Assembly: GCA_964602975.1 (NCBI GenBank) | Contig: CAZRTH010000001.1 | Location: 5,385 to 69,384, forward strand | From: an uncultured Candidatus Saccharibacteria bacterium | GTDB taxonomy: Bacteria; Patescibacteriota; Minisyncoccia; Phycocordibacterales; JBBTRF01 | Length of the DNA stretch: 64,000 bases | Reading direction: 5' to 3' | Notes under the pieces: generated by a model | Databases searched by the model: none | The model's input: only the letters and a program-made list of their open reading frames with translations | What the model was told of the DNA's origin: nothing | In this document: positions 7,842 to 50,037 of the stretch, piece after piece | How positions within the stretch are numbered: position 1 is the first letter of the stretch | Layout of the letters: every line of letters starts with the position of its first letter | Program-made: the position numbers and the translations under genes

Positions 7842-9197
7842 ATGCACTCAGATCGATTTATTGTGGAGGGTTTGGCGGGGAAGAAAACGCTGCGCGGCCG
7901 TGTTCAGATCAACGGAGCAAAAAACGCTGTGCTCAAGGCAATGGCCGCAAGCGTACTTTTTTCCGATGAGGTTCTCATCGCCAACGCGCCAGATACCGAA
8001 GATGTGAAGAAATTGGCCCATCTCATGCGGCTTGCCGGCGCGGAAGTGTCGCTCGATAGTGCGAAAAAGGAGATTCGAATCAATGCCTCTAGTATTGTGT
8101 CGACTGATCTCGATCATGAGACTACAAAATCAATGCGCGGCTCCGTCATGCTCACGGGGCCGATCTTGGCTCGCTTCGGCAAAGTGTCTTTCAATGTACC
8201 TGGCGGTTGTGTTATCGGCGCTCGACCGATCGACCTCTATATTGATGCGTACAAAAAACTCGGCGCGAAGGTGAACATTCAGGGTGATCATCATGCGATC
8301 GAGATAGAAGAAAACGGAAAGTCAGGAAGCAAACTTGTCGGCGCGGAAGTTTTCTTCGCGCTTCAGACAGTCGGCGGTACCGAGACGATGATGATGGCAG
8401 CTGTGCTCGCCAAAGGCACGACGGTGTTGAAGAATTGCGCGATGGAGCCGGAGATCGTCAGCCTCGCAGAATTTTTGGTTCAGTGCGGGGCGAAGATCGA
8501 GGGTATTGGCACCCCGACAATGACGATCGTCGGAGGGGGTTTGCTAAAGGCGAATGGCAAGGCGTATCGCACTATTCCGGATCGTATTGAAGCGGGGAGT
8601 TTTCTGCTGTTGGGCGCACTGTGTGCCGACGATCTGCTCATCGAGCACTGCAATCCATCTCATCTCGAATCGGTTACTTCCGTTTTGAAAGATGCCGGAG
8701 TAGCTCTCGAGATCGGCAAAGATTCAATTCATATCAAAGAGAATGCAAAGACGAAATGGTTGGATGTTCGGAGTTTCAATGTTCGTACGCACGAGTACCC
8801 GGGATTTCCGACCGATCTTCAGCCGCAGATGGTGGCTTTTCTTGCACACACTGCCGGCGAGGGGATCATGTTCGAGACGATTTACGAAGGCCGATTTAAA
8901 TACGTCCAGGATCTGATCCGAATGGGAGCGCAGATCACCGAAATGAATCCGCGCGAGGTGTTGATTCGAGGGTTTGGCGACGAAAAAGTGGGAGATGGAA
9001 CCAAAACGCTGATTGCGCTTGGCGAGGATGAACCGTTGCAGGCACACGATATTCGCGCAGGCTTTGCGATCGTGATGGCGGCTTTGGCTGCGAAAGGCAC
9101 CTCGGTGATCCAGAACACTTACTACATCGATCGTGGATATGAAAAGCTCGAAGAGCGCCTCGCTTCGCTCGGCGCCATAATTCGACGGAATAAGTAA
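7842..9197 (+). CDS. murA: UDP-N-acetylglucosamine 1-carboxyvinyltransferase
   Basis: MHSDRFIVEGLAGKKTLRGRVQINGAKNAVL... typical MurA N-terminus; EPSP-synthase-fold length. Start chosen at the internal Met. Confidence 0.9.
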   Translation: MHSDRFIVEGLAGKKTLRGRVQINGAKNAVLKAMAASVLFSDEVLIANAPDTEDVKKLAHLMRLAGAEVSLDSAKKEIRINASSIVSTDLDHETTKSMRGSVMLTGPILARFGKVSFNVPGGCVIGARPIDLYIDAYKKLGAKVNIQGDHHAIEIEENGKSGSKLVGAEVFFALQTVGGTETMMMAAVLAKGTTVLKNCAMEPEIVSLAEFLVQCGAKIEGIGTPTMTIVGGGLLKANGKAYRTIPDRIEAGSFLLLGALCADDLLIEHCNPSHLESVTSVLKDAGVALEIGKDSIHIKENAKTKWLDVRSFNVRTHEYPGFPTDLQPQMVAFLAHTAGEGIMFETIYEGRFKYVQDLIRMGAQITEMNPREVLIRGFGDEKVGDGTKTLIALGEDEPLQAHDIRAGFAIVMAALAAKGTSVIQNTYYIDRGYEKLEERLASLGAIIRRNK

Positions 9198-9807: not shown

Positions 9808-9854
9808 GAGCAGTTTGATAATTCCCTCGGCTCGGCGTATGATAACGGCACGTT

Positions 9855-10868
9855 ATGGCGCTTTTCACGAAAAAGATCGGCATCGACCTTGGTACGGCTA
9901 ACACGCTTGTTTTTTTGCCTGGGAAAGGGATCGTACTCAACGAGCCTTCGGTGGTGGCAGTCTCTGAACAAGACAACCGTATTTTGGCGGTGGGTTTGGA
10001 GGCGAAAGCAATGATCGGTCGCACGCCGGATAATATCATCGCCTATCGTCCGATGAAGGACGGCGTCATTGCCGACTATCGAGTGACCGAGGCGATGCTT
10101 CGCTATTACATCAACAAGGCCCTCGGCAAGTGGAATCTGTTCAAGCCGGATGTGATGATTTCCGTGCCTGCGGGCGTGACTTCGACAGAACGACGAGCGG
10201 TGATCGAAGCGGCGATCAAGGCAGGCGCGAAAAATGCGTACGTGGTGAAAGAGCCGATCCTTGCGGCGATCGGTGCCGGTATTCCGATCTATGAAGCCCG
10301 CGGTCACATGGTCGTGGACATTGGTGGCGGCACTACTGACGTAGCGGTGATCGCTCTTGGCGGTATCGTGTCTTCGACTTCAGTGAAATGTGCCGGCAAT
10401 CGTATCGACGCGGCTATTGCTGATTATGTGAAGAAAACTTTCAATCTTTCGATCGGCGACAAAATGTCGGAGGACATCAAGATCAATATCGGCTCGGCGG
10501 TTCCGCTCGACGAAGAACTCGCAATGGTGATCAAAGGTCGCGATTTTATCACCGGCCTGCCACGCACCGCTGAAGTGAAGACCAATGAGATCGTGAAGGC
10601 GATCGGCAAAGAGCTGCGCGATATGATCAAGGCGATCAAAGATGTACTCCAAGAAACGCCGCCGGAACTTTCCGCCGACATCATCGACAATGGCATTATC
10701 ATGACGGGCGGCTCGAGCATGCTACGCAATTTTCCTGAGTTGGTGTATCGTCGCACCGGCGTGAAGGCTGTGCTTGCGAAGGACGCTCTCTACTGCGTCG
10801 CAAAAGGCACCGGCATCGCGCTCGAACACCTCGACACCTACAAAAAGTCGATCATCACGAAGCGGTAA
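9855..10868 (+). CDS. mreB: rod shape-determining protein MreB (paralog 1)
   Basis: IGIDLGTANTLVF...NEPSVVAV actin-fold N-terminus; 337 aa. Confidence 0.9.
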   Translation: MALFTKKIGIDLGTANTLVFLPGKGIVLNEPSVVAVSEQDNRILAVGLEAKAMIGRTPDNIIAYRPMKDGVIADYRVTEAMLRYYINKALGKWNLFKPDVMISVPAGVTSTERRAVIEAAIKAGAKNAYVVKEPILAAIGAGIPIYEARGHMVVDIGGGTTDVAVIALGGIVSSTSVKCAGNRIDAAIADYVKKTFNLSIGDKMSEDIKINIGSAVPLDEELAMVIKGRDFITGLPRTAEVKTNEIVKAIGKELRDMIKAIKDVLQETPPELSADIIDNGIIMTGGSSMLRNFPELVYRRTGVKAVLAKDALYCVAKGTGIALEHLDTYKKSIITKR

Positions 10869-11347: not shown

Positions 11348-12045
11348 TCAGTTTCCTAAAAGCACATATCTATCCCGGCGCTTTGCATCACGCGTACTGT
11401 ATTTCCGACTCAACGGTTTCAGATCACGTGGCAGGCACGCCACACGCGAGCTTTTTTGCTTTCCTCGAAAAACATCTCAATATCCCTACCCGAGGCAATC
11501 CGGATTTTTGGCACGGCCAATTTGAGTCGCTCGGTATCGATGAGGCGAGGCAGATAAAAGAGATGCAGTTGCGGTCGGCTGCGAATGCTGGAGCAAAAAA
11601 GATTTTCGTCATTTCGACGGGTACGATCACTCATGAGGCACAGAATGCTTTGCTGAAAGTGTTTGAGGAACCGACCGCTGACACACACTTTTTTTTGTTG
11701 ATGCCGTCCGCGGAAGTGCTGCTACCGACGCTTCGTTCGCGAGTTGTGATCGTGTCGATAGGGGAGATGGGAGTGGTTCCAGGATCGGAACAATTAGCGA
11801 AGAGTTTTCTTGGCGCTTCGAAAGGAAAACGGATGGCTATCGTGAAGTCACTGATTGAAGAAAAAGATAAGTCAGCGACGCTCGCTCTCGTCGACGGGCT
11901 TCTTAAGGCGCTCTCGAAAAATCCCAAAGAGACTTTGGTGCATCAGAAAGAATTGCAGGAACTACTCGCGATGCGTGGATACTTGAATGATCGATCCTCT
12001 AGCTTGAAAATGATCCTCGAGTACCTTTGTTTGGTCGTGAAGTAG
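11344..12045 (+). CDS. holB: DNA polymerase III delta' subunit-like
   Basis: Clamp-loader motifs NALLKVFEEP and TLRSRVVIV (SRC-like); 233 aa. Confidence 0.7.
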   Translation: MISFLKAHIYPGALHHAYCISDSTVSDHVAGTPHASFFAFLEKHLNIPTRGNPDFWHGQFESLGIDEARQIKEMQLRSAANAGAKKIFVISTGTITHEAQNALLKVFEEPTADTHFFLLMPSAEVLLPTLRSRVVIVSIGEMGVVPGSEQLAKSFLGASKGKRMAIVKSLIEEKDKSATLALVDGLLKALSKNPKETLVHQKELQELLAMRGYLNDRSSSLKMILEYLCLVVK

Positions 12046-12106
12046 TTTTTATAAAAGGGCTCTTTGGTGGTCAAGAGGGGGGTGTCCGTCAGTGTTTTTG
12101 AGTAGG

Positions 12107-12153
12107 TGCGGATTTGTCATACAAAAGTATGAGGAAAGTATGACAAATCCGCA
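12107..12153. repeat. palindromic intergenic repeat element, copy 1
   Basis: 15-bp arms gcggatttgtcatac / gtatgacaaatccgc around loop aaaagtatgaggaaa; related copies at 44259..44305 and 48728..48778. Confidence 0.8.
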
Positions 12154-12354
12154 GATGCTTGTTTTTGGCTCGCCGCCACCACCCCTCCCCAAGCCTCCTT
12201 AGCGGCGGTATTGACAAAACTTCCTATTTATGTAAGAGTACAGGAAGTTCGCTAGGCCTTGAAACCCTAGCTACTCAGCCAAAAACAAGGAGAATCACTT
12301 AAAAAGCCGATGTTCGGCTTGCTCTCTGTGGCGGTTGTTTGCGGGCTCTTTTCC

Positions 12355-12885
12355 ATGAAAAAACTCCTGTTCCTCTTGATCCTTGGCGCGGTCTTTGTCA
12401 GCAACTTCTTCACCACCGGCTGCCAGACGATGGCGACCGGAAAAGGCGAAGATATCTACATCTCGGTGGATCAGCCGAACAGCCGGATCTACCTCAACGA
12501 CGTCCTCCTGTCGGCGAGTTCTTACGCCACGATCCGGCTGAACAAGAGCGGCGGACCCTACAAGATCACCGCTCGCAAGATCGGCTACCTCGAGAAGGAG
12601 GTCAAAGTCACGTCCAAATGGAACTGGCGCCAGACAGGCGTCGCCTTCTTGGACAACATCTTCGGGGTGATCAAGATGGGTTCGTTTGTGTTTGAGGCCG
12701 CCACTGGCGGGCTCAAACAGCTGGATGCTCACGGCATCCGTCTCGAACTCACTCCGGTGACCGCCCAGGCTCAGCCGCCTCGGCTATCTGCGACCGAAGA
12801 TACACGACTCGATCCGGTTGGTGATCTCAAGCGCTGGCGTGCCGCCGGCAACAAGGGTTACCCGCCGAGCTTCGGTCCCCAGTGA
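12355..12885 (+). CDS. putative lipoprotein (PEGA-like beta segment)
   Basis: Signal peptide MKKLLFLLILGAVFVSNFFTTGC (lipobox); YKITARKIGYLEKEVKVT resembles PEGA; elevated GC. Confidence 0.5.
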   Translation: MKKLLFLLILGAVFVSNFFTTGCQTMATGKGEDIYISVDQPNSRIYLNDVLLSASSYATIRLNKSGGPYKITARKIGYLEKEVKVTSKWNWRQTGVAFLDNIFGVIKMGSFVFEAATGGLKQLDAHGIRLELTPVTAQAQPPRLSATEDTRLDPVGDLKRWRAAGNKGYPPSFGPQ

Positions 12886-13579: not shown

Positions 13580-14788
13580 ATGACCATTATTATTTTCATT
13601 CTCATCCTTGGCGCGCTGGTGTTCGTGCACGAGCTCGGGCATTTTGTCGTGGCCAAGGCATTTGGAATTCGAGTGGATCAATTTGCACTCGGTTTCCCGC
13701 CGCGCCTCTTCAGTTGGAAACCGAAAAATTCTGAAACCACCTATGCGCTAAACCTGTTGCCGCTCGGTGGCTACGTGAAGATCTTCGGAGAAAATCCGGA
13801 TGAAGCTTCGCTGAAAGGCCCTGATCGCGGTCGAAGTTTGGTGAACAAACCAAAATATGTGCAGCTGCTCGTGCTCATTGCGGGTATTGTTTTTAATATT
13901 TTGTTTGCATGGCTTTTGTTGTCCGCCGGATTCATGGCCGGTTTGCCAGTCTCGGTCTCCGATCGTTATGCGGACGCAGTGAAGGATCCGGAGGTCATCA
14001 TTCGGGAAGTGGCCGTAAGTTCCCCTGCGGAACAAGCGGGCTTTTTGTCGGGAGATGCCATTGTGTATCTTGAGGCTGATCTAGCCGTTCCAATCGATGT
14101 ATCGGTTGCAGGTGGTGGTACTTCGAGAGAGGTGTTGCGCGGTGCGGGCGTGACACCATCGAGCGTTCGGCGTTTCATCTCCGAACATCCCGATGAGCCG
14201 ATCTCGGTGCTCGTGAAGCGTTCTGGCGACACTCAGAGCTCGACTGGCAATGCCTTGTTGCAAGTGACACCGCGGATTTCCGCCAATACCACCGGCTCGG
14301 GCGCCGCAGGAGAGTCGCAGTCGGCTCCTCGAGCCACGATCGGCGTAGTGATGGATCAAGTCGGGGTATTACAACTGCCATGGTATCGAGCGTTGTGGGA
14401 AGGAATCTTTTTTACAAAAGACGTGGTGGTCGTGACGAGCGAGCAGATCGGACATTTTCTCTGGCAGGCTGTCACCGGCAAAGCAGACATCAACCAAGTG
14501 AGCGGGCCGGTGGGGATCGCGAGCCAGGTGGGCGTTGCTCGAAGCCTCGGTTTCGCATACGTGCTGTCTTTCACCGCATTTATTTCCGTGAACCTTGCCC
14601 TACTCAACCTTGTGCCGTTTCCGGCGCTTGATGGCGGTCGTATTTTGTTCGTATTTATTGAAACCGTGATCCGTCGTCCGATCAAGCCGATAGTCGCGAA
14701 CTGGCTGAATGGCATCGGCTTCGTTCTTTTAATGATATTGATGATTGTGATCGCGTATCACGATATTGTGAAATTGGTAGTGAGATAA
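13580..14788 (+). CDS. rseP: RIP site-2 zinc metalloprotease (M50, RseP-like)
   Basis: HELGHFVVAK HExxH in the first TM segment; PDZ-like middle region; LDGG motif near the C-terminus. Confidence 0.85.
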   Translation: MTIIIFILILGALVFVHELGHFVVAKAFGIRVDQFALGFPPRLFSWKPKNSETTYALNLLPLGGYVKIFGENPDEASLKGPDRGRSLVNKPKYVQLLVLIAGIVFNILFAWLLLSAGFMAGLPVSVSDRYADAVKDPEVIIREVAVSSPAEQAGFLSGDAIVYLEADLAVPIDVSVAGGGTSREVLRGAGVTPSSVRRFISEHPDEPISVLVKRSGDTQSSTGNALLQVTPRISANTTGSGAAGESQSAPRATIGVVMDQVGVLQLPWYRALWEGIFFTKDVVVVTSEQIGHFLWQAVTGKADINQVSGPVGIASQVGVARSLGFAYVLSFTAFISVNLALLNLVPFPALDGGRILFVFIETVIRRPIKPIVANWLNGIGFVLLMILMIVIAYHDIVKLVVR

Positions 14789-16261: not shown

Positions 16262-17554
16262 ATGAAGCAATCACAACTCTTCTCGAAAACCCGCAAAGAA
16301 GCCCCAAAAGACGAGGTTTCGAAGAATGCCCAACTCCTCATACGCGCTGGGTACATCAACAAGGAAATGGCGGGGGTGTATTCGCTGTTGCCGCTCGGTC
16401 TCATCACGCTGAACCGCATCAACAGGATCATTCGCGAAGAGATGAATGCGATCGGTGGACAGGAAGTATTTCTTTCGACGCTCCAAGACAAATCGGTATG
16501 GCAAAAGACTGGCCGATGGGACGACGCGGTGGTGGACAATTGGTTCAAGACAAAATTAAAGAATGATTCCGAGCTCGGACTCGGCTTTACGCACGAGGAG
16601 CCGCTCACGTTATTGATGAGAAATTTCGTGCAGTCTTTCCGCGATCTGCCAGTGTACCCATACCAGATCCAGACCAAGTTTCGAAACGAAATTCGCGCGA
16701 AGAGCGGTATCATGCGTGGTCGCGAGTTTTTGATGAAGGATCTCTACTCGTTCTCTCGAGATGAAAAAGAGCACCAAGCTTTCTACGAAAAAACCAAGCA
16801 GGCATATATGAATGTTTTTCGCCGAGCCGGCATCGCCGACCGAACACATCTCACCTTTGCTTCGGGTGGTTCGTTTGCAAAATATTCTCACGAGTTCCAG
16901 ACTGTCAGCGACGCTGGCGAAGACCTGATCTATGTCGATGAAAAGAGCGGCATTGCCGTGAACAAAGAAGTGCTCACCGATGAAGTGCTGGCTGATCTTG
17001 GTATCAAGCGCGGCAACCTTGTGGAGAGAAAAGCCGTGGAAGTCGGAAATATTTTCAGTCTCGGTACGCGATTTTCCGAGCCGCTCGAGCTTCGTTTTTT
17101 GAATGAAAAGGGAGAAAAGCAGAATGTGGTGATGGGTAGCTATGGCATTGGTCCGACTCGGCTCATGGGCGCGGTTGTCGAAGCCCTCTCCGACGCCGAT
17201 GGAATTGTCTGGCCGGAGGAAGTTGCGCCGTTTCGTGTGCATTTGATCGCGATCGCCGACAAGGCGGGAAAAGTGGCGGAGGAGGCTGCAAAGCTGTACA
17301 ATGCTTTCACCGAAAAAGGGATCGACGTTCTGTATGACGATCGAGATGCCCGACCGGGAGAAAAATTCGCGGACTCCGACCTGCTTGGCCTGCCACATCG
17401 AGTGGTGCTCAGCGAGAAAACACTGGCAGAAGGGGTGTTGGAATACAAGCCTCGCTGTGCGAATACTGCGGGTGAACGATCGGTAGAGAAGATCACGCAG
17501 GCAGAACTTCTGAAACGACTGTCACGAAATATAAAGAATGAAAAAATTTGTTAA
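16262..17554 (+). CDS. proS: prolyl-tRNA synthetase (short form, no INS editing domain)
   Basis: 430-aa class II aaRS with ProRS N-terminus; too short to contain the bacterial INS domain. Confidence 0.9.
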   Translation: MKQSQLFSKTRKEAPKDEVSKNAQLLIRAGYINKEMAGVYSLLPLGLITLNRINRIIREEMNAIGGQEVFLSTLQDKSVWQKTGRWDDAVVDNWFKTKLKNDSELGLGFTHEEPLTLLMRNFVQSFRDLPVYPYQIQTKFRNEIRAKSGIMRGREFLMKDLYSFSRDEKEHQAFYEKTKQAYMNVFRRAGIADRTHLTFASGGSFAKYSHEFQTVSDAGEDLIYVDEKSGIAVNKEVLTDEVLADLGIKRGNLVERKAVEVGNIFSLGTRFSEPLELRFLNEKGEKQNVVMGSYGIGPTRLMGAVVEALSDADGIVWPEEVAPFRVHLIAIADKAGKVAEEAAKLYNAFTEKGIDVLYDDRDARPGEKFADSDLLGLPHRVVLSEKTLAEGVLEYKPRCANTAGERSVEKITQAELLKRLSRNIKNEKIC

Positions 17555-18599
17555 AAAACTCAATCATTTCCTCTCTCACGATATCGGCATCGATCTCGGT
17601 ACTGCAAACACGCTCGTATATATGAGCGGGCAGGGGATCATTATCAATGAGCCGTCGGTGGTGGCGGTAAATGAAAAGACCGGCCAAGTGGTGGCGGTGG
17701 GAACGCAGGCCAAGCAGATGCTCGGTCGCACTCCCGCGCATATCAAGGCGGTGAAGCCGCTGGTGGATGGCGTAGTGTCGGACTTTGAGGTGACCGAGGA
17801 AATGATCTCGTACCTCATCAACAAAGCGCAGCAGTCGAAGAAAAAATTGCTCGGTCCGCGAGTAGTGGTGGGCGTGCCATACGGTATCACCAACGTGGAG
17901 ACGCGAGCAGTGCGCGATGCGACCAAAAACAGTGGCGCACGCGAAGTGTATATTGTCGAAGAGCCGATGGCAGCGGCGATCGGTATTCGTTTGCCGGTGA
18001 ATGACCCTGTGGGTAGCATGATCATCGACATTGGCGGCGGTACCACAGATATTGCCGTAATCTCTTTGGGCGGGATTGTTCGGGCGAAGACGCTCAAGAT
18101 CGCCGGCGACAAATTGAACAACGATATCATCAGCTATATTCGGGGTGAATTTAAAATTTTGATCGGCGAGAAGACCGCTGAGCAGATCAAGATCCAGATC
18201 GGTTCAGTGATCCCTGGCGATGTGCCGCTCGAGTCTTCGGTGAAAGGTCGCGATCTCATCACTGGCCTACCGCGCGAAGTGGTGATCACCGATGGTGATG
18301 TTCGCGAAGCAATTTCGCAGTCGATCGATGTTCTAGTCGAGTCGGTGAAAGAGGTGCTCGAGACCACGCCGCCGGAAATCGTCTCCGATGTGATGCATCG
18401 CGGGGTGCATGTCGTAGGGGGCGGTGCCTTGCTTCGAGGAATTGGCGAACTTTTCCAGCAGCATATCAATATTCCGGTGCACATCGCTGAAGATCCGCTC
18501 ACGGCTGTTGCCCGAGGTACCGGTATCATCCTGGAAAATCTTGTTTTGTATGAAGAGGTATTGATCCAAAATGAAGATGAACTCCCTCCGCAAAACTAA
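17538..18599 (+). CDS. mreB: rod shape-determining protein MreB (paralog 2)
   Basis: IGIDLGTANTLVYM...NEPSVVAV; followed by mreC. Confidence 0.9.
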   Translation: MKKFVKKLNHFLSHDIGIDLGTANTLVYMSGQGIIINEPSVVAVNEKTGQVVAVGTQAKQMLGRTPAHIKAVKPLVDGVVSDFEVTEEMISYLINKAQQSKKKLLGPRVVVGVPYGITNVETRAVRDATKNSGAREVYIVEEPMAAAIGIRLPVNDPVGSMIIDIGGGTTDIAVISLGGIVRAKTLKIAGDKLNNDIISYIRGEFKILIGEKTAEQIKIQIGSVIPGDVPLESSVKGRDLITGLPREVVITDGDVREAISQSIDVLVESVKEVLETTPPEIVSDVMHRGVHVVGGGALLRGIGELFQQHINIPVHIAEDPLTAVARGTGIILENLVLYEEVLIQNEDELPPQN

Positions 18600-24651: not shown

Positions 24652-24899
24652 ACAAGTATGGCACATTGGCCGGAGGTGATTCGAGTCGGCTCTGTGGATA
24701 ACTTTGTTGTATAGTGGGATGAAGTGGTATAAAATGTTATCTAAGTGGGAAAAAGTGGTAAATAAATAAAAAAACATGAAACTCACCAAAAAAATCTTCG
24801 TCGTTCGATCGGGTCAGAGTTCGTACGCTTTCCTCTCAGCCACACTCGAAGTCACACCCCAAGAAAAGGTCGTAGTCAGAAAATAATTTTGCATCGTCT

Positions 24900-25334
24900 A
24901 TGTTTATCGGGCAATACACGCACACCATAGACGACAAAAACAGGCTCTCTTTGCCTGTGAAGTTTCGAAAGGAGATGGGGAAGCGGGTGATCATCACTCC
25001 CGGTCTCGATGGCTGCCTCTTCGTGTTCACGCCCACTCAGTGGCAGAACATTTCTGAAAAGCTTGGAGGTTCGTCTATGCTTCAGGCGGATACGCGAAGC
25101 TTCAATCGATACATGCTCGGCGGCGCGGTGGAGGCAGATGTGGACGCGATCGGTCGCGTGCTGGTGCCGGATTTTTTGAAAGAGAAAGCGCAACTGAAGA
25201 GGGAGGTCGTCCTCATCGGCGTGCAAAATCGTGTCGAGATCTGGAACGATCAGTTGTGGATCGAATACAAGGCTCGAGTCGAGAAGGAGGCGAATAATCT
25301 GGCCGAAAAGCTCGGTCAGATCGGTGTTTTATAA
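24900..25334 (+). CDS. mraZ: transcriptional regulator MraZ
   Basis: MFIGQYTHTIDDKNRLSLPVKFR; 144 aa; first gene of the dcw cluster. Confidence 0.9.
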   Translation: MFIGQYTHTIDDKNRLSLPVKFRKEMGKRVIITPGLDGCLFVFTPTQWQNISEKLGGSSMLQADTRSFNRYMLGGAVEADVDAIGRVLVPDFLKEKAQLKREVVLIGVQNRVEIWNDQLWIEYKARVEKEANNLAEKLGQIGVL

Positions 25335-32049: not shown

Positions 32050-32052
32050 AAA

Positions 32053-32078
32053 AACGCGGCAGTTGCCTGCCGCGCTTG
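32053..32078 (-). terminator. rho-independent terminator for paralog A (hairpin cgcggcag-ttgc-ctgccgcg plus U-run on minus strand)
   Basis: 8-bp stem; the minus strand reads ...GCAACUGCCGCGUUUUUU; homologous hairpin at 34324..34345. Confidence 0.6.
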
Positions 32079-32113
32079 CGTGTTTGGTTCAAACCGCCCC
32101 AGGGGATCGGTGC

Positions 32114-32839
32114 TTAGTTCAACGGATTGCCATTCGCCGTAACGTCTTTCGCGGCATTCCGCCGGACGATGACGAAGTCGTGGCCGTGTTCGATCTCGAA
32201 GAGCTGCGGCGCCTTGCCGTTGTCGTGCTCTGTTTCGGTGGCATCCTCGGCAGGGAACTCGCGTTTGACGACGATCTTCCAGCCTTCACGGATTCCGACT
32301 TGGGTGCCCGTCTCGTGACGTTGAGGCATGTCGGCCAACAGGTGCTGACTGAAGAGAGTTGCAGCTAGGGTCGAGAGCGCCTGCAGCCGTTCCTGTCGCT
32401 GTTTGCGAGGCTCGACCTCGCTGCGATTTTTCGCGCGGGGCAAGGCGCCTGCTTTCTCAGCGAATTCGTTGCTCAGTCGGAAGAGTTCCATGGTGACGCG
32501 AGAGGTCACGACGCCAATCTCACGCTCGGTGTGAGGATCCATCGCCTGGAGGGGATGGAAGAGTTGGGAGTCTGCCGACTGTTTGCCTTGGTAGATGCCG
32601 GCCAGCGCGCGGAGGAACTGTCCCTTGTCCTGTTGGACCAAGGTCCTGCCGGGGAGGGTGATCACCTCCTCGTCCTGTGGTTTTTTGACCGCCCGACTTC
32701 CGTGACTTCTCAGCCTTGTGGGCTTGGTTTTCGGTGCCGTCGATGTCTTCATGGTGTGTCCTGTGTTTTGGTTTTTTCTCGGCCAAACTTCCGGTTGGCT
32801 CTCGGGTGCGGTACTCCTAGACGAGGAGCACGAATTCAT
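32114..32839 (-). CDS. hypothetical protein, paralog A of a two-member family (high GC)
   Basis: 241 aa; shares LRALAGIYQGKQSADSQLFHPLQ...MELFRLSNEF...KIVVKREFPAEDATETEHDNG with ORF 34378..34893. Confidence 0.55.
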   Translation of the reverse strand: MNSCSSSRSTAPESQPEVWPRKNQNTGHTMKTSTAPKTKPTRLRSHGSRAVKKPQDEEVITLPGRTLVQQDKGQFLRALAGIYQGKQSADSQLFHPLQAMDPHTEREIGVVTSRVTMELFRLSNEFAEKAGALPRAKNRSEVEPRKQRQERLQALSTLAATLFSQHLLADMPQRHETGTQVGIREGWKIVVKREFPAEDATETEHDNGKAPQLFEIEHGHDFVIVRRNAAKDVTANGNPLN

Positions 32840-34222: not shown

Positions 34223-34323
34223 TCAAGGACATTTGGTTCGCTAAGTCATACAGTCTGCGCCGCTCGCTCCCCGCGAGCGGCGCTTCTTTTTTTGCTTCAG
34301 CCAAATAAGAAAATAAGAAAAGC

Positions 34324-34345
34324 CCGGCAGTTGCCTGCAGGGCTT
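34324..34345 (-). terminator. terminator hairpin homologous to 32053..32078 (shared core ggcagttgcctgc)
   Basis: 9-bp stem with one mismatch; the minus strand is followed by a UUUUCUUAUUUU tract. Confidence 0.55.
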
Positions 34346-34377
34346 CGAGTTGTCGGACCGATTATTCGCTTCGAGGG

Positions 34378-34893
34378 TTACTCTTCGCAACCATTGCCGC
34401 CGTTACGGGCCAGACGCTCGCGTTCGCTCTGGATGCGCCGGGCCAGCACCTCGCCGAAGGAAACCGCTGTGCCGCCATTGAGCATACGAAGCATGGCCGC
34501 CATGGAGTCGGTCTCCTCGTTGGACTCGTGCTCGATGACGATGTGCCAGTCCACACGGAGGCCCAAATCGTCCTTCTTGAGCTTCGCGCCGATCTCGCCT
34601 TCGACCTCGACCCAGAAGAGCTGCATGGCAGTTTCGGTGAGGTTTCCCAGGTGCTTCCGTAGGTGGTTGTAGGCCTCCATCTCGGACGGATCTTTCGGCA
34701 ACGGCACTCCGAGAGCCCGCTGCTTGAACTCCATGCCGAGCCGGAAGAGTTCCTTCGCCATCTGGGAGGTGACGATGTGAACACACTTCTCGCCGAGCGG
34801 GTTGATGGGCTCGAGCGGGCGGAACAAGGCGCGGCCTTCGGAGGTCTTGCCCTTGTAGATGCGCGCGATCTCGTCGGCGAAGTCCTTTGAGCC
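34378..34893 (-). pseudogene. 5'-truncated paralog B of ORF 32114..32839 (possibly still expressed from the TTG at 34827)
   Basis: In-frame homology to paralog A (GSKDFADEIARIYKGKTSEGRALFRPLEP...) starts at the first sense codon after a TGA stop at 34894..34896. There is no ATG, only a TTG at 34827. The region further upstream is unrelated. Confidence 0.5.
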
Positions 34894-40273: not shown

Positions 40274-41389
40274 ATGTCGCAGACATTGGTCGTCTTGTTG
40301 GTTGCGGTTGCCGTTCTTTTGCTGGCCGGCAACGGTTTTTTGATCTGGAAATTGCTGAAGGGCAAAGAAGAGGCCGATGAACCAAAAGAAGACACCGGTC
40401 TCAAGCTGCTTCTCCAGCAGATGAACGAGCTTTCTCGGGTGGTGGACAGCAAGGTCACTGAGCTGAACCGCACGGTGGACTCAAAGATGAACGAAAGCGC
40501 GCGGCATATGAACGATTCGATCCGCAATCAGTTTGGCGAGTCGGCCAAGCTCATCCGCGAAGTCACGCAAGGCCTCACCAAGCTTGATGAGACCAATCGT
40601 CAAGTGGTCTCGTTTGCTGATCAGCTCCAGGGCTTGCAAGATATTTTGAAAAATCCGAAGCAGCGAGGTGTCCTCGGCGAGTATTATCTCGAGACGTTGC
40701 TGAAGAATGTGCTGCCGCCTGGGCAGTACCAGATGCAGTATGCTTTTGCCAACGGCGAGATCGTGGATGCGGCTGTGTTTGTGAAAGACAAGGTGATCCC
40801 GATCGACTCTAAGTTTTCACTTGAGAACTACAACCGCATGGTGGAGACACGCGACGCTGCAGAAAAGGAGCGCTTGAAGAAGTTGTTTGAGAACGATCTG
40901 AAACTGCGCATCCAGGAGACCTCGAAATACATCCGGCCGAACGAAGGCACGATGGACTTTGCCTTCATGTTCATCCCGCACGAAGCCATCTACTACGATC
41001 TGCTGGTGAATACGATCGGTGCAGGCACAGGCGGCGCAGATGGTGATGAAAATCTCATCCAACGCGCGGCAGGGAAGTACAAGGTCATCATTGTCTCGCC
41101 GACTTCCTTCCTAGCCTATCTCCAGACGGTTTTGCAGGGTTTGAAGGCAATGCAGATCGAGGAGCAGGCTAAGGACATCGTGAAGCGCGTGTCCGAGCTC
41201 GGCAAGCATTTGAAGGGGTATGAGGAGTATCACGCCAAGATCGGGAACTCTCTCGCTACCGTGATCAATCATTACAACAACTCTGGAAAGGAATTCAAGA
41301 AGATCGACAAGGACGTCATGCGTATCACCGGCACTGCTGTGGGGATCGAGACATTAGTCCTCGACAGGCCTGAGACTGAGGAGGTATAA
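40274..41389 (+). CDS. rmuC: DNA recombination protein RmuC
   Basis: N-terminal TM, long coiled coil, conserved FMFIPHEAIYYDLL region. Confidence 0.8.
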   Translation: MSQTLVVLLVAVAVLLLAGNGFLIWKLLKGKEEADEPKEDTGLKLLLQQMNELSRVVDSKVTELNRTVDSKMNESARHMNDSIRNQFGESAKLIREVTQGLTKLDETNRQVVSFADQLQGLQDILKNPKQRGVLGEYYLETLLKNVLPPGQYQMQYAFANGEIVDAAVFVKDKVIPIDSKFSLENYNRMVETRDAAEKERLKKLFENDLKLRIQETSKYIRPNEGTMDFAFMFIPHEAIYYDLLVNTIGAGTGGADGDENLIQRAAGKYKVIIVSPTSFLAYLQTVLQGLKAMQIEEQAKDIVKRVSELGKHLKGYEEYHAKIGNSLATVINHYNNSGKEFKKIDKDVMRITGTAVGIETLVLDRPETEEV

Positions 41390-44125: not shown

Positions 44126-44258
44126 TGGGCTATTCTACCTTTTGGCGGTGGGGCAGGGCAATGGGCGATCGATAGGCAAAATGGAATAACGTGTGGAGAG
44201 GGTGGGGATAGGGTGGCGTGCCCATGGACAGGGGTGGCGCGCAGATAAAAAGAGTAGG

Positions 44259-44305
44259 TACGGATTTGTCATACTTTCCTCATACTTTCGTATGACAAAT
44301 CCGTA
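44259..44305. repeat. palindromic intergenic repeat element, copy 2 (inverted relative to copy 1)
   Basis: cggatttgtcatac-tttcctcatactttc-gtatgacaaatccg; the loop is the reverse complement of the copy 1 loop. Confidence 0.8.
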
Positions 44306-44365
44306 GGTACTCCAAAATGCCGGCAGACACCCCCCGCAGCTTAAAAAACAGCTTAATATATAGCA

Positions 44366-45850
44366 CTACTTCTTCTCTAACTTGCTTCCCTCGTTTGTGT
44401 CTATAACATCGTAGCCTTTTTCCTTCAGCATCGCTCGAAGTTCATCTGAACGCTTGAAATCTTTTTGCTGACGAGCGAGGTCGCGGTCTTTTTGGAGCTG
44501 GAGAATATCAGGCGGAGCAGTGAGTGGCTGAACTGTCGAGGTCGCCAAAAGCTTGAGGCCGAGCGCGTGATTGAATTCTTTGATCGCACTCAATTTTTCT
44601 TCGTTGCTGATCGAGACGTCTTTCAACATATCCCACATAGTCGCGATCGCTTTTGGCGTGTTGAGGTCGTCATTAATCAAGTCGACGAAAGCAGTTTTGT
44701 AGGTTGCGGCAGTTGCCGTAGCTGCTGTAGGTGACCGTAATGCCTGTACCTGCTCAAGTAGTCTTTCATACGCCGTCTGCGCGCCTTTGACGGCCTCCCA
44801 GGTGAAATTCATCTGCGTGTGATATGAAGCGCCGAGTAGCCAATAGCGAAAACCGAGCGGCGTGACGTCGTGTGAGGTAAGGTCTTTCAAGTAGATAGTG
44901 TTGCTAAGCGACTTTGAGATCTTTTGTCCGTCAATGAGTAGATGGGCGTTGTGGAGCCAGAAGCGGGCGAATGGCCGGCCGGTCGAGGCTTCAGATTGAG
45001 CGATCTCGTTGTTGTGATGAGTGGGGATGTGGTCGATACCGCCGGTGTGGATGTCGATTGTCCGGCCGAGCAGCTTCATGGCCATCGCCGAACACTCGAT
45101 ATGCCAGCCTGGAAAGCCGACGCCCCACGGCGATGGCCATTCCTGATCGCGTTTCTGTGTGACGGTTCCGCTTGTCGCCGTTTCATTTGTTGTATTTGAA
45201 AACTTCCATAACGCAAAGTCGGTCAGATTTCGCTTTTCTGCGTTTGTGGCGACGCGATGACCTTCAGCTAGGCCCGCAAGGTCGATATTGCCAAGCCTGC
45301 CGTATTTGGGAAATTTGACCGTGTCGAAATAGATACCGTCCGAGGTTTTGTAGGTGAACCCGTGCTTCTCGAGCTGTTCGATGAGGGCGATTTGCTCGGG
45401 AATATAGCCAGTTGCGCGAGGGAATAGGGTAGCAGGGGAGTGGACACCGTTTTTTGTTGGATCGCTTTCGATATTTAGCTCCTTCAACCCCTCAAAAAAC
45501 TCTCGTGTGTACTCATCCGAAATTTCTTTCGAAGATCGCTGTTGTTTTTGAGCGGCGAGCTGCATTTTGTCTTCGCCCTCGTCGCCGTCGCCGACAAGGT
45601 GGCCGACATCCGTGATATTGATGACCTGCTTCACCGCATACCCATTGAGTTCAAGCACGCGCTTCAATGTGTCGGCAAAAATATACGAACGATAGTTGCC
45701 GACATGGAGTGACTGGTACACCGTCGGTCCGCAGTTGTACATCGTGACCGTTTTCGCGGCGAGACCGATCCTGCTCAAAAAGCCTTTGCCTAAAGGGGCA
45801 AATGTTTCTTTCTGTTTGCTCAGTGTGTTGTAGAGGCGAATGTCAGACAT
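44366..45850 (-). CDS. cysS: cysteinyl-tRNA synthetase
   Basis: HIGH (SLHVGN) and KMSKS (KISKSLSN) motifs; 494 aa. Confidence 0.9.
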   Translation of the reverse strand: MSDIRLYNTLSKQKETFAPLGKGFLSRIGLAAKTVTMYNCGPTVYQSLHVGNYRSYIFADTLKRVLELNGYAVKQVINITDVGHLVGDGDEGEDKMQLAAQKQQRSSKEISDEYTREFFEGLKELNIESDPTKNGVHSPATLFPRATGYIPEQIALIEQLEKHGFTYKTSDGIYFDTVKFPKYGRLGNIDLAGLAEGHRVATNAEKRNLTDFALWKFSNTTNETATSGTVTQKRDQEWPSPWGVGFPGWHIECSAMAMKLLGRTIDIHTGGIDHIPTHHNNEIAQSEASTGRPFARFWLHNAHLLIDGQKISKSLSNTIYLKDLTSHDVTPLGFRYWLLGASYHTQMNFTWEAVKGAQTAYERLLEQVQALRSPTAATATAATYKTAFVDLINDDLNTPKAIATMWDMLKDVSISNEEKLSAIKEFNHALGLKLLATSTVQPLTAPPDILQLQKDRDLARQQKDFKRSDELRAMLKEKGYDVIDTNEGSKLEKK

Positions 45851-48195: not shown

Positions 48196-48636
48196 ATGAA
48201 AGTCGTATTACTGAAAGACGTACCGAAGCTCGGCAAGAAATTCGATATCAAAAATGTCGCTGACGGCCACGCGCTGAACAGTTTGATTCCGCAGGGGTTG
48301 GCCGCTGTTGCCACCGATGGCGTGGTGAAGCGCATTGAGGCTGAGAAGGCTGTCTTGGAGGAGAAACGCAAGAAGGAGGAAGCTGAGCTCGCAAAGAATC
48401 TCGATGCGGTGAAGGCGCTGCAGCTCACGATTGTTGCGAAGGCAAATCCAAAAGGCCATTTGTTTTCGGCGATCCACAAGGCGGATATCGCTACCGAGAT
48501 CCGCAAAGCCGGCATCGCCATTGGCGCCGACTTCATTTCTCTCGATAAACCGATCAAGGAAGTAGGTGAACACACTATCGAGGTAGTAGCAGGAGGGAAG
48601 TCTGCGAGATGTAAGTTGAATGTAGTTGCGGCGTAA
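48196..48636 (+). CDS. rplI: 50S ribosomal protein L9
   Basis: MKVVLLKDVPKLGKKFDIKNVADGHALN...; 146 aa. Confidence 0.9.
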   Translation: MKVVLLKDVPKLGKKFDIKNVADGHALNSLIPQGLAAVATDGVVKRIEAEKAVLEEKRKKEEAELAKNLDAVKALQLTIVAKANPKGHLFSAIHKADIATEIRKAGIAIGADFISLDKPIKEVGEHTIEVVAGGKSARCKLNVVAA

Positions 48637-48727
48637 GTAACGGAGTAAATAGTGAATGAGAGACGCAACAGGAAGGTAGGAGGCGCCGAGCTATAGTAGG
48701 GAGAGTGTCCGCCGACATTTTCAGGTA

Positions 48728-48778
48728 CCCGCGGATTTTGCATACGAAAGTATGAAGAAAGTATGCAAAATCCGCGGG
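48728..48778. repeat. palindromic intergenic repeat element, copy 3 (variant arms ...ttttgcatac)
   Basis: cccgcggattttgcatac-gaaagtatgaagaaa-gtatgcaaaatccgcggg; same loop motif as copy 1; downstream ccccgcagctt shared with copy 2. Confidence 0.75.
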
Positions 48779-48829
48779 GTCGAAAAAACCCCGCAGCTTG
48801 TGCGTGGTTTTTAGCGCTGTTTTTACCCC

Positions 48830-49135
48830 TCAGGCTTTTAGAAAGTTCCCCTTCCTGAGGACTTCGGTGACATCGTTATCAATGTGGGGAAGGGCCTCTT
48901 CATTCGTTAGCTCGAGGGCATCCATCCCTAAACTTACTGACGACAATGGTGCTCCGGTGCCGAGCGTTGACCGTTGCACATCCCAAGGTGCTTTCATGAT
49001 GGCTGCTACTGATTCGGGAAATTCCCTCATCCCCTCAACCCTCAAAAAGATATCTGCGTTGGGAAGTTGCACGTAGTTGTGGCCCAAGACGAAAAGCGTC
49101 CCGAGCGGAATGTCTCTGACAGTAGTTGCTTTCAT
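48830..49135 (-). CDS. hypothetical small protein downstream of the AAA ATPase
   Basis: About 101 aa from MKATTVRDIPLGTLFVLGHNY...; no domain; co-oriented 66-130 bp after the ATPase gene. Confidence 0.35.
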   Translation of the reverse strand: MKATTVRDIPLGTLFVLGHNYVQLPNADIFLRVEGMREFPESVAAIMKAPWDVQRSTLGTGAPLSSVSLGMDALELTNEEALPHIDNDVTEVLRKGNFLKA

Positions 49136-49263
49136 AAGGTGCCGTTTCGTGAGTTCTGAACGTTGCTGGTTGGCTGTGTTTGTTGGAGAGCCTAGCACAT
49201 TCTAAGAAAAAATAAAAGACCCTTTTGAAGGCTCTCTCTAAAGGCGATGGTCCGAGGGAAGCC

Positions 49264-50037
49264 TCAGTCTTTAAATAGTCGATTTAGGTACTGGGGTGGA
49301 TTGTCCAAGAATGACTTGGTGATCTGATACTGCTTTGTTTCTTCGTAACTCACATTTTCTAGTTTTTTGCCATCGCAGGAGTAAATTGTCGAATTCGGGT
49401 AAGCAAGAAGAATAGGCGAGTGTGTGGCAATAATGAATTGAGACTCTGGATTACGACATATCTCATTAATAATAACCAGCAAGGCAAGTTGCCGTTGCGG
49501 AGATAGTGCAGCTTCCGGCTCGTCAAATAGGTAAAATCCTCCGCCGCCTATCCTGTTCTTAAAGAACGACAAAAAACTTTCCCCGTGTGATTGTTCATGG
49601 AGAGATTTTCCTCCGTATGGAGCGTAGGTAAGATATCTTTGTCCCGGCTGTTTTGACGTCTCGTCGATAAAGTTTGCGACATTAAAAAAACTTTCCGCTC
49701 GAAAGAAGTAGCCGTCACGAGGCTTTTTCCTCCACGAAAGCGTCATGCTCGAAGCAAGTTGTTCGGTTTGAGAATAGAAAGTATCATCAGCCGTAGTGAA
49801 GCTGATATTCTTGCTGCCACCCTCTTTTCCAAAACCAGTTCGTGAAGCTATTGCTTCAAGAATCGTGGATTTACCTGTTCCGTTTTCACCCACAAAAAAT
49901 GTAACCTGTGTCGGAAATGTAATGTCCGTCAAGTTCTTTACGATCTCCAGAGAAAAAGGGTACTTTGAAAAATCGAGTTTACTATCCTTCGCGAGGCTGA
50001 CTTTCACCTTGTCTAATATAGGTCCGTCTAATTTCAT
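49264..50037 (-). CDS. stand-alone ABC/SMC-type P-loop ATPase (AAA_21-like, 257 aa)
   Basis: Walker A GENGTGKST, signature-like SHGESF, Walker B FYLFDEPEAALSP, H-loop IIATHSP; gene about 42% GC versus about 51% background. Confidence 0.7.
   Translation of the reverse strand: MKLDGPILDKVKVSLAKDSKLDFSKYPFSLEIVKNLTDITFPTQVTFFVGENGTGKSTILEAIASRTGFGKEGGSKNISFTTADDTFYSQTEQLASSMTLSWRKKPRDGYFFRAESFFNVANFIDETSKQPGQRYLTYAPYGGKSLHEQSHGESFLSFFKNRIGGGGFYLFDEPEAALSPQRQLALLVIINEICRNPESQFIIATHSPILLAYPNSTIYSCDGKKLENVSYEETKQYQITKSFLDNPPQYLNRLFKD

Follow-up and report, generated by a model that had tools for sequence, protein, structure and literature searches.

A probable lineage-specific interspersed palindromic repeat with a conserved, orientation-flipping centre in Paceibacteria-like bacteria

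A hairpin-forming repeat was found at three intergenic sites, 12109-12151 (+), 44261-44303 (-) and 48728-48778 (+), of a 64-kb window (the whole 64,000-nucleotide stretch of contig CAZRTH010000001.1 analyzed here, numbered from its first letter). On balance, these sites are copies of a lineage-specific, REP/ERIC-like interspersed palindromic repeat that belongs to a Paceibacteria-like clade of the Candidate Phyla Radiation (CPR; Patescibacteria). The family comprised 22 copies from 11 genomes or metagenome sources, relatives included, and all 22 were intergenic. The repeat is not a terminator family. No matching element turned up in the literature, whether searched by sequence or by topic, and the family is apparently previously undescribed.

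The first-pass annotation of the window had listed three copies of a palindromic unit of ~47 bp, and the three were present in the sequence as described. A scan with a 43-nt consensus matched copies 1 and 2 with 0 mismatches (0.00 expected in shuffled sequence), the centre motif GTATGARGAAAGTATG occurred at precisely three sites in the window (0.03 expected in shuffled sequence), and a covariance model of the core, R1, run over the whole 64 kb with filters off, recovered only the three copies (75-86 bits). The arms of all three hairpins were perfect, 14-18 bp long, and enclosed a 15-nt centre, AAAAGTATGA[G/A]GAAA. Folding was far more stable than in shuffles, both as RNA (z from -4.9 to -7.5) and as DNA (z from -6.7 to -9.4). 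By repeat finding and alignment, similarity ran past the 47-nt unit: it covered ~89 nt when copies 1 and 2 were compared and ~75 nt for copies 2 and 3. The box-plus-T-run module GGGGTGTCCGYCRNYRTTTT was found in the window only beside the three hairpins. The unit length was revised: the hairpin is the core of an imperfect palindrome of ~100-110 bp. Copy 2, which had been called the exact reverse complement of copy 1, does have the opposite orientation, but its first centre base is G instead of A and its flanks differ. The 'ccccgcagctt' said to be shared by copies 2 and 3 is present (44332-44342 and 48789-48799), but it belongs to an arm, whose outer end it forms, and falls on opposite sides once the copies are oriented alike. 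The small hairpin ggggtcgaaaaaacccc, which had been taken for an insertion in copy 3, is better read as part of a right arm that has been shortened and runs AAGCTGCGGGG, T-run, inner segment.

Exact-pattern scans, R1 and protein homology searches around the holB site brought up further copies. In a set of 185,579 species genomes, only the metagenome-assembled genome (MAG) ELA631 had true copies, those with arms (7 copies; the other exact-pattern matches lacked arms), and R1 added one copy with a variant centre, giving 8 (contigs of 464 and 154 kb). The JGI/ENA metagenomes yielded five copies, three of them on a single 680-kb contig from Hainich groundwater; the same scan of viral contigs (IMG/VR) returned no copies, and a phage origin was rejected. 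The total of 22 is made up of 3 copies from the window, 8 from ELA631, 5 from metagenome contigs and 6 found through protein homology at the holB site. The sample behind the last figure was unbiased: homologues of the small protein encoded downstream of copy 1 led to seven related loci with no motif used, and the element followed holB in five of the seven (L097, L099, L102, L103 and L104; another contig, L098, is of the L097 type). The site was empty in L100 and L101, where only 30-57 nt lay between the holB stop and a conserved promoter. Farther relatives (L093-L095, DnaB ~71% identical) contained no family member, and had long hairpins of their own and a different palindromic repeat instead. 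Homologues of the window's DnaB were named Paceibacterota, Pacebacteria, Parcubacteria or Patescibacteria (best, 72% identical), and the host is, judged on its sequence, a Paceibacteria-like CPR bacterium. Copy density came to 3 in the 64-kb window and 8 in the ELA631 sequence, which amounts to at least 618 kb; on the 680-kb contig, 3 copies matched the exact pattern.

The intergenic sites included dnaK-dnaJ (ELA631 and JACCDR), dprA-topA and rpsP...trmD (both in ELA631 and in Hainich), secY-adk, an aminoacyl-tRNA synthetase gene followed by scpA, the region upstream of uvrB, rplY-SLT, and the position after rplI (window and Hainich); one copy sat between the divergent starts of pfkB and fba. 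Orthology of the paired sites was shown by tblastn. Classification as a dispersed intergenic palindromic repeat of REP/MITE type, proposed at first pass, was upheld: additional copies turned up, the element is conserved in relatives, and none of the copies is genic.

Each copy is an imperfect palindrome whose arm, read inward, consists of a G-rich box (GGGGTG...), a homopolymer run (T4-7 or A4-9), the inner segment GAGTA(GG/CC)YR and the stem CGGATTT(G/T)(T/G)CATAC. The conserved core of ~63 bp is formed by the inner segment and a perfect stem of 14-18 bp, always beginning CGGATTT. At the family centre lie 15 asymmetric nucleotides bearing AAAAGTATG(A/C). Beyond the core, imperfect inverted repetition of the arms extends as far as the G-rich boxes (GGGGTG.../...CACCCC), like the terminal inverted repeats of MITEs (miniature transposable elements with inverted-repeat ends). 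Two subfamilies were distinguished, A (GCATAC with GAAGAAA) and B (TCATAC with GAGGAAA), and both occurred within single genomes. Overall, 88.9% of cells were paired and seven pairs had changed on both sides. The stem base, CGGATTT/AAATCCG, was near-invariant (columns 11-17 and 49-55, without covariation), and the stem tops of the motif-independent holB series were compensatory (CATAC/GTATG, CATCC/GGATG, CTTCC/GGAAG and ATGCC/GGCAT). The centre in this series was kept at 15 nt with AAAAGTATG(A/C) in five of the six occupied genomes, retaining A(A/G)AAG(T/G)ATG(A/C), and this conservation across relatives bears out the earlier remark that the loop indicates more than a generic terminator. The holB-site centres were as follows.

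Copy 1 (window): AAAAGTATGAGGAAA
L097: AAAAGGATGCAAAAA
L102: AAAAGTATGCAAAAA
L104: AAAAGTATGCGGTTT
L099, opposite strand: AGAAGTATGCAGTTT

The centre of the remaining genome, L103, was expanded to TCACAC-GAAT-TCATAT-TTT-GTATGA-AGTC-GTATGA-AATT-GTATGA-GACC-GTATGA. It contains four GTATGA direct repeats with a 10-nt period, in which the hexamer is conserved and the spacers differ, and two inverted copies in addition.

In the window, the neighbours were identified by Pfam as DNA_pol3_delta2 (holB-like, + strand, ending at 12045), CysS (- strand, ending at 44366, with dnaB downstream) and L9/rplI (+ strand, ending at 48636). All three copies therefore lie at gene 3' ends, as first described. The features of the copies are given below.

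12077-12185, + strand: copy 1, whole element, ~109 nt, starting 32 nt past the stop of the holB-like gene (12045); in order, G-rich box GGGGGGTGTCCGTCAGTG, T5, GAGTAGGTG, hairpin, CAGATGCTTG, T5, GGCTCGCCGCCACCACCCC.
12109-12151, + strand: copy 1, hairpin core, arms CGGATTTGTCATAC / GTATGACAAATCCG; 16 bp when counted over 12107-12153.
12123-12137, + strand: copy 1, 15-nt centre, the sequence listed above.
12162-12166, + strand: copy 1, T5 run directly 3' of the extended stem, read along the same strand as the upstream gene.
44231-44342, - strand: copy 2, whole element, starting 24 nt past the cysS stop (44366-44368); in order on the - strand, AAGCTGCGGGGGGTGTCTGCCGGCA, T4, GGAGTACCTA, hairpin, TACCTACTC, T5, ATCTGCGCGCCACCCC.
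44261-44303, - strand: copy 2, hairpin core; the centre at 44275-44289 reads GAAAGTATGAGGAAA on the - strand.
48699-48799, + strand: copy 3, whole element, subfamily A, 63 nt past the rplI stop (48636); in order, GGGAGAGTGTCCGCCGACA, T4, CAGGTA, hairpin with 18-bp arms, shortened right arm GTCGAAAAAACCCCGCAGCTT.
48728-48778, + strand: copy 3, hairpin core, arms CCCGCGGATTTTGCATAC / GTATGCAAAATCCGCGGG; the centre at 48746-48760 reads GAAAGTATGAAGAAA.
48800-48829, + strand: small hairpin and T-runs 3' of copy 3, GTGCGTGGTTTTTAGCGCTGTTTTTACCCC.

Copy 2 lies upstream of the dnaB start (44125), at a distance of ~105 nt. Relative to copies 1 and 2, copy 3 has GT changed to TG in the left arm and AC changed to CA in the right arm, with pairing preserved.

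Some copies have been kept at orthologous positions, and others have been gained, lost or replaced between relatives. Between ELA631 and Hainich the 63-nt core was 89% identical at dprA-topA and 79% at rpsP-trmD, against 27-46% for the adjacent non-coding flanks. The syntenic Hainich locus (L088) lacked copy 2; a remnant-like arm and an extra NYN gene were found there. After rplI the same locus carried a subfamily-B copy, opposite in orientation to the subfamily-A copy 3 of the window.

The spacer upstream of dnaB, the copy 2 site in the window, is itself a variable hot spot with a different gene in each relative: an NYN nuclease in L088 (1880-2642), an NTP-transferase in L093 (9136-9939), Mur-ligase-like and pilin-like genes in L094 (7954-9879) and a PaaX_M-like gene in L095 (9226-9687). 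The last is flanked on both sides (9121-9164 and 9835-9878) by another repeat, a perfect palindrome of 44 nt (..TGTATAC..ATTCCGCG-NN-CGCGGAAT..GTATACA..). Lineage-specific palindromic repeats may be common in the Paceibacteria group.

The centre is not fixed relative to the arms. When copy 1 and the copy of L090 were aligned, the T-type arms were ~29/31 identical and the centres were reverse-complementary. Both centre-arm isomers occur in subfamilies A and B, and therefore the centre was flipped relative to the arms more than once. Perfect inverted arms would provide a route for such flipping, by template switching or inversion. Nor was the centre biased with respect to co-directional flanking genes, being in the same sense at 7 independent sites and in the opposite sense at 4. 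An early, rough count of open reading frames (ORFs) had suggested that loop orientation tracks transcription; after the Pfam-verified tally this was dropped.

The arrangement of the homopolymer runs bears on termination. With the centre read forward, the first 16 copies had the runs (T,A) in 5-6 cases, (A,T) in 6, (T,T) in 4 and (A,A) in 0, and four later copies with readable arms were all (A,T). The (A,A) combination is the layout of a bidirectional terminator, and the suggestion of a shared bidirectional terminator was not supported: A-run, hairpin and T-run occurred in that order in 0/20 copies with both arms readable. On the sense strand, a U-run after the stem was found only in copies 1 and 2 and at rpmA in L088, and an A-run followed the hairpin at 9 of 11 independent co-directional sites (dnaK-dnaJ, secY-adk and dprA-topA among them). 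In copies 1 and 2 the extended stem is followed by U5 on the sense strand. For copy 1 this T5 gives an intrinsic-terminator-like layout behind holB, and copies 1 and 2 may have intrinsic-terminator activity. The terminator consensus scan did not flag copies 1-3; its loop range was 3-8 nt, and the loop here has 15. For rplI, the small hairpin at 48800-48829 is the more plausible candidate terminator than copy 3, which is followed by an A-run. Two related ideas were discarded: T-runs as sense terminators throughout the family, which held for copies 1 and 2 only, and a mini-hairpin inside the T-type arm as a terminator in its own right, whose pairing was unconserved and which copy 1 cannot form.

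It is very improbable, then, that the sites are ordinary rho-independent terminators, possibly bidirectional, that are merely alike. The position of all three window copies after gene 3' ends and the U5 of copies 1 and 2 would fit, but near-identity over 43-89 nt at unlinked sites cannot be convergence, and the prevailing A-rich sense runs, the missing bidirectional layout, the copy between the divergent pfkB and fba starts and the canonical bidirectional terminator that L088 has next to its own copy contradict this as a general explanation. Extremely improbable is a cis-regulatory or small structured RNA with the centre as its loop, including the idea that the long stem alternates with a short CATAC-NAAA-GTATG hairpin. 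The alternative 6-bp helix, between the left-arm top and the centre hexamer, could form in 94% of cells and co-varies in L097 (CATCC / GGATG / GGATG), and the centre is in sense orientation in five of six genomes at the holB site. Yet this covariation comes from one sequence, the helix is broken in L102 (CTTCC facing GTATGC), and it was rejected as weakly supported; many copies have a centre that runs opposite to the arms and genes, the downstream genes are unrelated, no conserved ORF begins at the stem AUG, and there is no match to an Rfam family. A purely selfish, non-autonomous MITE-like element without host function, its copies alike through recent spread and gene conversion, is improbable but would account for the presence/absence polymorphism, the independent occupation of the same spacer by different subfamilies and orientations, the two subfamilies within genomes and the palindromic architecture with its terminal-inverted-repeat-like ends. 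Against it stand the retention of the core at orthologous sites while the flanking spacer is randomized, persistence in streamlined genomes of ~0.6-1 Mb, the low copy number, a centre conserved over larger distances than the arms, no visible target-site duplication and no matching transposase in the 64 kb.

It is possible, though doubtful, that the primary function is a DNA-level protein recognition site, iteron-like or presented on a hairpin, with terminator activity incidental. Its partner could be a protein that organizes the chromosome or has a regulatory role, or else an HUH-type (RAYT/Rep-like) enzyme that works on the hairpin once extruded. GTATG(A/C) hexamers spaced ~10-11 bp, the invariant CGGATTT arms without covariation, a centre motif conserved while the stem top co-varies, and the periodic GTATGA series of L103 with its differing spacers and inverted copies all speak for such a site, as does the unbiased orientation of the centre (7 same, 4 opposite), which a duplex site predicts. 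A related genome has a Y1_Tnp gene, though its hairpins are unrelated. However, no candidate protein was identified, the motif is absent outside the element in the window, the copies are scattered over at least 240 kb in mixed orientation and are thus not parS- or KOPS-like, a duplex binder would need no perfect inverted arms of 14-18 bp, and a single GTATG hexamer is left in L102, L099 and L104.

Membership of a REP/ERIC-like interspersed repeat family remains the favoured account, and several observations weigh against it. For 13 of the 22 copies, the search pattern fixed much of the centre, so that conservation of their centres is partly ascertainment. No target-site duplication was visible when filled holB sites (window, L097, L099, L102 and L103) were compared with the empty ones (L100 and L101), a check called for at first pass, the boundaries being fuzzy. 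No Y1_Tnp or other mobility enzyme was present among the ~60 window ORFs checked, and no autonomous insertion sequence (IS) with matching ends was found in the window or in the relatives' fetched loci. Copy number is low, unlike that of classic REPs, and a 15-nt loop on an AT-rich stem is atypical of intrinsic terminators.

For the repeat family so understood, the following mechanism is proposed. Arm complementarity would be kept, and the centre occasionally flipped, by template switching or conversion within the palindrome, together with selection. The element would act as a very stable hairpin or cruciform and as a strong stem on transcripts. Where T-run, hairpin and T-run follow each other, as in copies 1 and 2, the layout would amount to an intrinsic terminator for holB and cysS; with the other layouts sense transcription would pass, and the most that the element could do would be to shield RNA ends, to process them or to halt antisense transcription. 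It may be retained because the hairpin is useful, or tolerated, between genes. At the other copies the hairpin may function as RNA or as DNA. For the invariant stem base and the conserved centre, which work in both orientations, the best explanation would be a putative protein that specifically recognizes the sequence of the hairpin or duplex, and the possible protein-binding site raised at first pass has gained in weight. A more specific proposal is offered tentatively and is rather unlikely: that the repeat is the site of a dedicated clade-specific protein, for which a nucleoid factor, a transcription factor and a domesticated HUH/RAYT-like enzyme are candidates. What it recognizes would be a motif presented on a hairpin or cruciform and made up of the CGGATTT stem base, AAAAGTATG(A/C) and the GTATGA iterons.

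Other candidates were tried and rejected. A small ORF starting from the AUG in the right arm gave peptides that diverged after MTNP/MKNP, with varying stops. A known RNA family was not recovered from Rfam at gathering or permissive thresholds; the window reached the gathering threshold only with tRNA-Glu, and the permissive scan gave sub-threshold miRNA-hairpin noise. LexA and CIRCE operators were dismissed, the contexts not being SOS or heat-shock promoters and the half-site layout not fitting. Free operator-like sites (CATAC-N4-GTATG or GTATGA-N5-GTATGA) were found nowhere in the window beyond the three copies. Clustering or polarity of the parS or KOPS kind was rejected on the scattered, mixed positions and strands in ELA631 and on the Hainich contig. 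An MraZ operator was discarded, the boxes of the window's own mraZ being AGTGG(G), not GTATGA. Those boxes are direct repeats with a 10-nt period at 24712-24765, upstream of mraZ (24900-25334), and look like a canonical MraZ operator arrangement.

Several further observations concern inverted repeats and mobility. Three independent Logan short-read contigs (L001, L098 and L104) end at position 1 inside or at the edge of the palindrome, because inverted repeats break de Bruijn assemblies. In the syntenic region of the relative L094, an IS200-like Y1_Tnp gene (13993-14415, 140 aa) is flanked by GC-rich hairpins of its own, whose sequences bear no relation to that of the repeat. The window encodes an RmuC-family protein (40274-41389); in E. 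coli, RmuC curbs inversions that arise at short inverted repeats.

Directly 3' of copy 1, the region 12213-12390 contains a strongly conserved promoter-like element, TATTGACAAA-N17-(G/A)AGA(A/G)T, followed by a hairpin with compensatory stem changes and the loop CCTTGAAA(C/T), and then by TCAGCCTAAAACAGAGAG and GGCCGNTGTTCGGTCGGCTCTCTGTGGCGGTTG. It was present in all eight genomes, those without the repeat included (window, L097 at 9860-10000, L099, L100, L101, L102, L103 and L104), and it had no Rfam match. The region may represent a so far undescribed leader, or a small RNA, upstream of the gene for the small protein that precedes frr, and the start of the window ORF at 12310 has probably been placed too far upstream. 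Beside copy 3, positions 48830-50037 encode a 257-aa ABC-type ATPase resembling the defence ATPases AriA/PtuA/GajA and a 122-aa ORF; both are absent from the syntenic Hainich contig (L088 7036-7238) and form a small accessory insertion between rplI and rpmA. Elsewhere the window is a housekeeping region (priA, murA, mreB, holB, frr, rseP, proS, mreBC, penicillin-binding proteins, mraZ/mraW, dnaB, recR, cysS, rplI, rpmA and scpAB). It has two mreB paralogues (9855-10868 and 17538-18599), 71% identical over 163 nt, and two repeat pairs (D9 and D18; 32050-32511 and 34318-34775) with the same ~2.27-kb spacing, including the hairpin AAAA-GCGGCAG-TTGC-CTGCCGC-TT. The equal spacing suggests tandem duplication of a gene and its terminator.

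CPR/Patescibacteria genomes are tiny, streamlined and uncultured, and their non-coding signals are almost uncharted. A repeat that is kept beside core genes (holB, cysS/dnaB, rplI, dnaK/dnaJ, dprA/topA, rpsP/trmD and secY/adk), this one with a selected stem and a conserved, asymmetric centre, offers a concrete way into transcription-end formation, the processing of RNA or recognition between DNA and protein, and model R1 can be used to annotate its sites. Were the repeat the site of a dedicated protein, it would represent a genome-maintenance or expression signal system specific to ultra-small CPR bacteria, beyond a REP-like relic.

The closest parallels are found among the palindromic repeats of other bacteria. 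Like the REP/BIME elements with RAYT of enterobacteria and Pseudomonas, the family consists of short palindromic intergenic units, often just past genes and in either orientation, that form stable stem-loops in DNA and mRNA and are lineage-specific; in many arms the stem is adjoined by a segment with GTAG (GAGTAGGTG). The GTAG foot that defines REPs was nevertheless present in roughly a third of the arms, the others having GTACC or GTGCC, and in this feature the repeat departs from REPs. REPs measure ~20-40 nt, whereas here a hairpin of 43-51 nt with a 15-nt loop is set within a ~105-bp palindrome and has a conserved asymmetric centre; the copies counted were a few to ~10 per small genome, against tens to hundreds for REPs, and no RAYT gene was present among the ~60 window ORFs checked. 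ERIC (IRU) sequences are imperfect palindromes of 127 bp in Enterobacteriaceae and Vibrio. The repeat resembles them as an imperfect palindrome of ~100 bp or more in transcribed intergenic regions, in both orientations, at low to moderate copy number, with part of the copies conserved at orthologous sites and part polymorphic. It differs in sequence and host phylum and in its conserved, flipping centre, and the TA target duplication of ERIC was not seen for it.

With the MITEs Correia/NEMIS (Neisseria), RUP and BOX (Streptococcus) it shares the character of a non-coding dispersed repeat with inverted-repeat ends that is present or absent between relatives, and such repeats can carry terminator activity. 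Here, by contrast, conservation is highest in the inner stem and the centre and not at the termini; no duplicated target site was detected and no parent IS is known. The DUS of Neisseria and the USS of Haemophilus occur in hundreds to thousands of copies, genic ones included, and have no conserved loop. In their terminator pairs a shared sequence forms hairpin stems past genes, so that unrelated terminators look alike, as with the present copies, which differ in their low number and conserved centre. At the origin hairpins of rolling-circle replicons, an HUH Rep protein nicks within a conserved loop and iterons lie nearby. Such origins provide a lead for the protein reading, as loop-conserved stem-loops with short direct repeats about one helical turn apart; the copies here, however, are chromosomal, multi-copy and in part orthologous, with no Rep gene nearby and no viral or plasmid copies found. 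Among interspersed intergenic palindromic repeats, the distinguishing twist of this family is its conserved, orientation-flipping, iteron-like centre.

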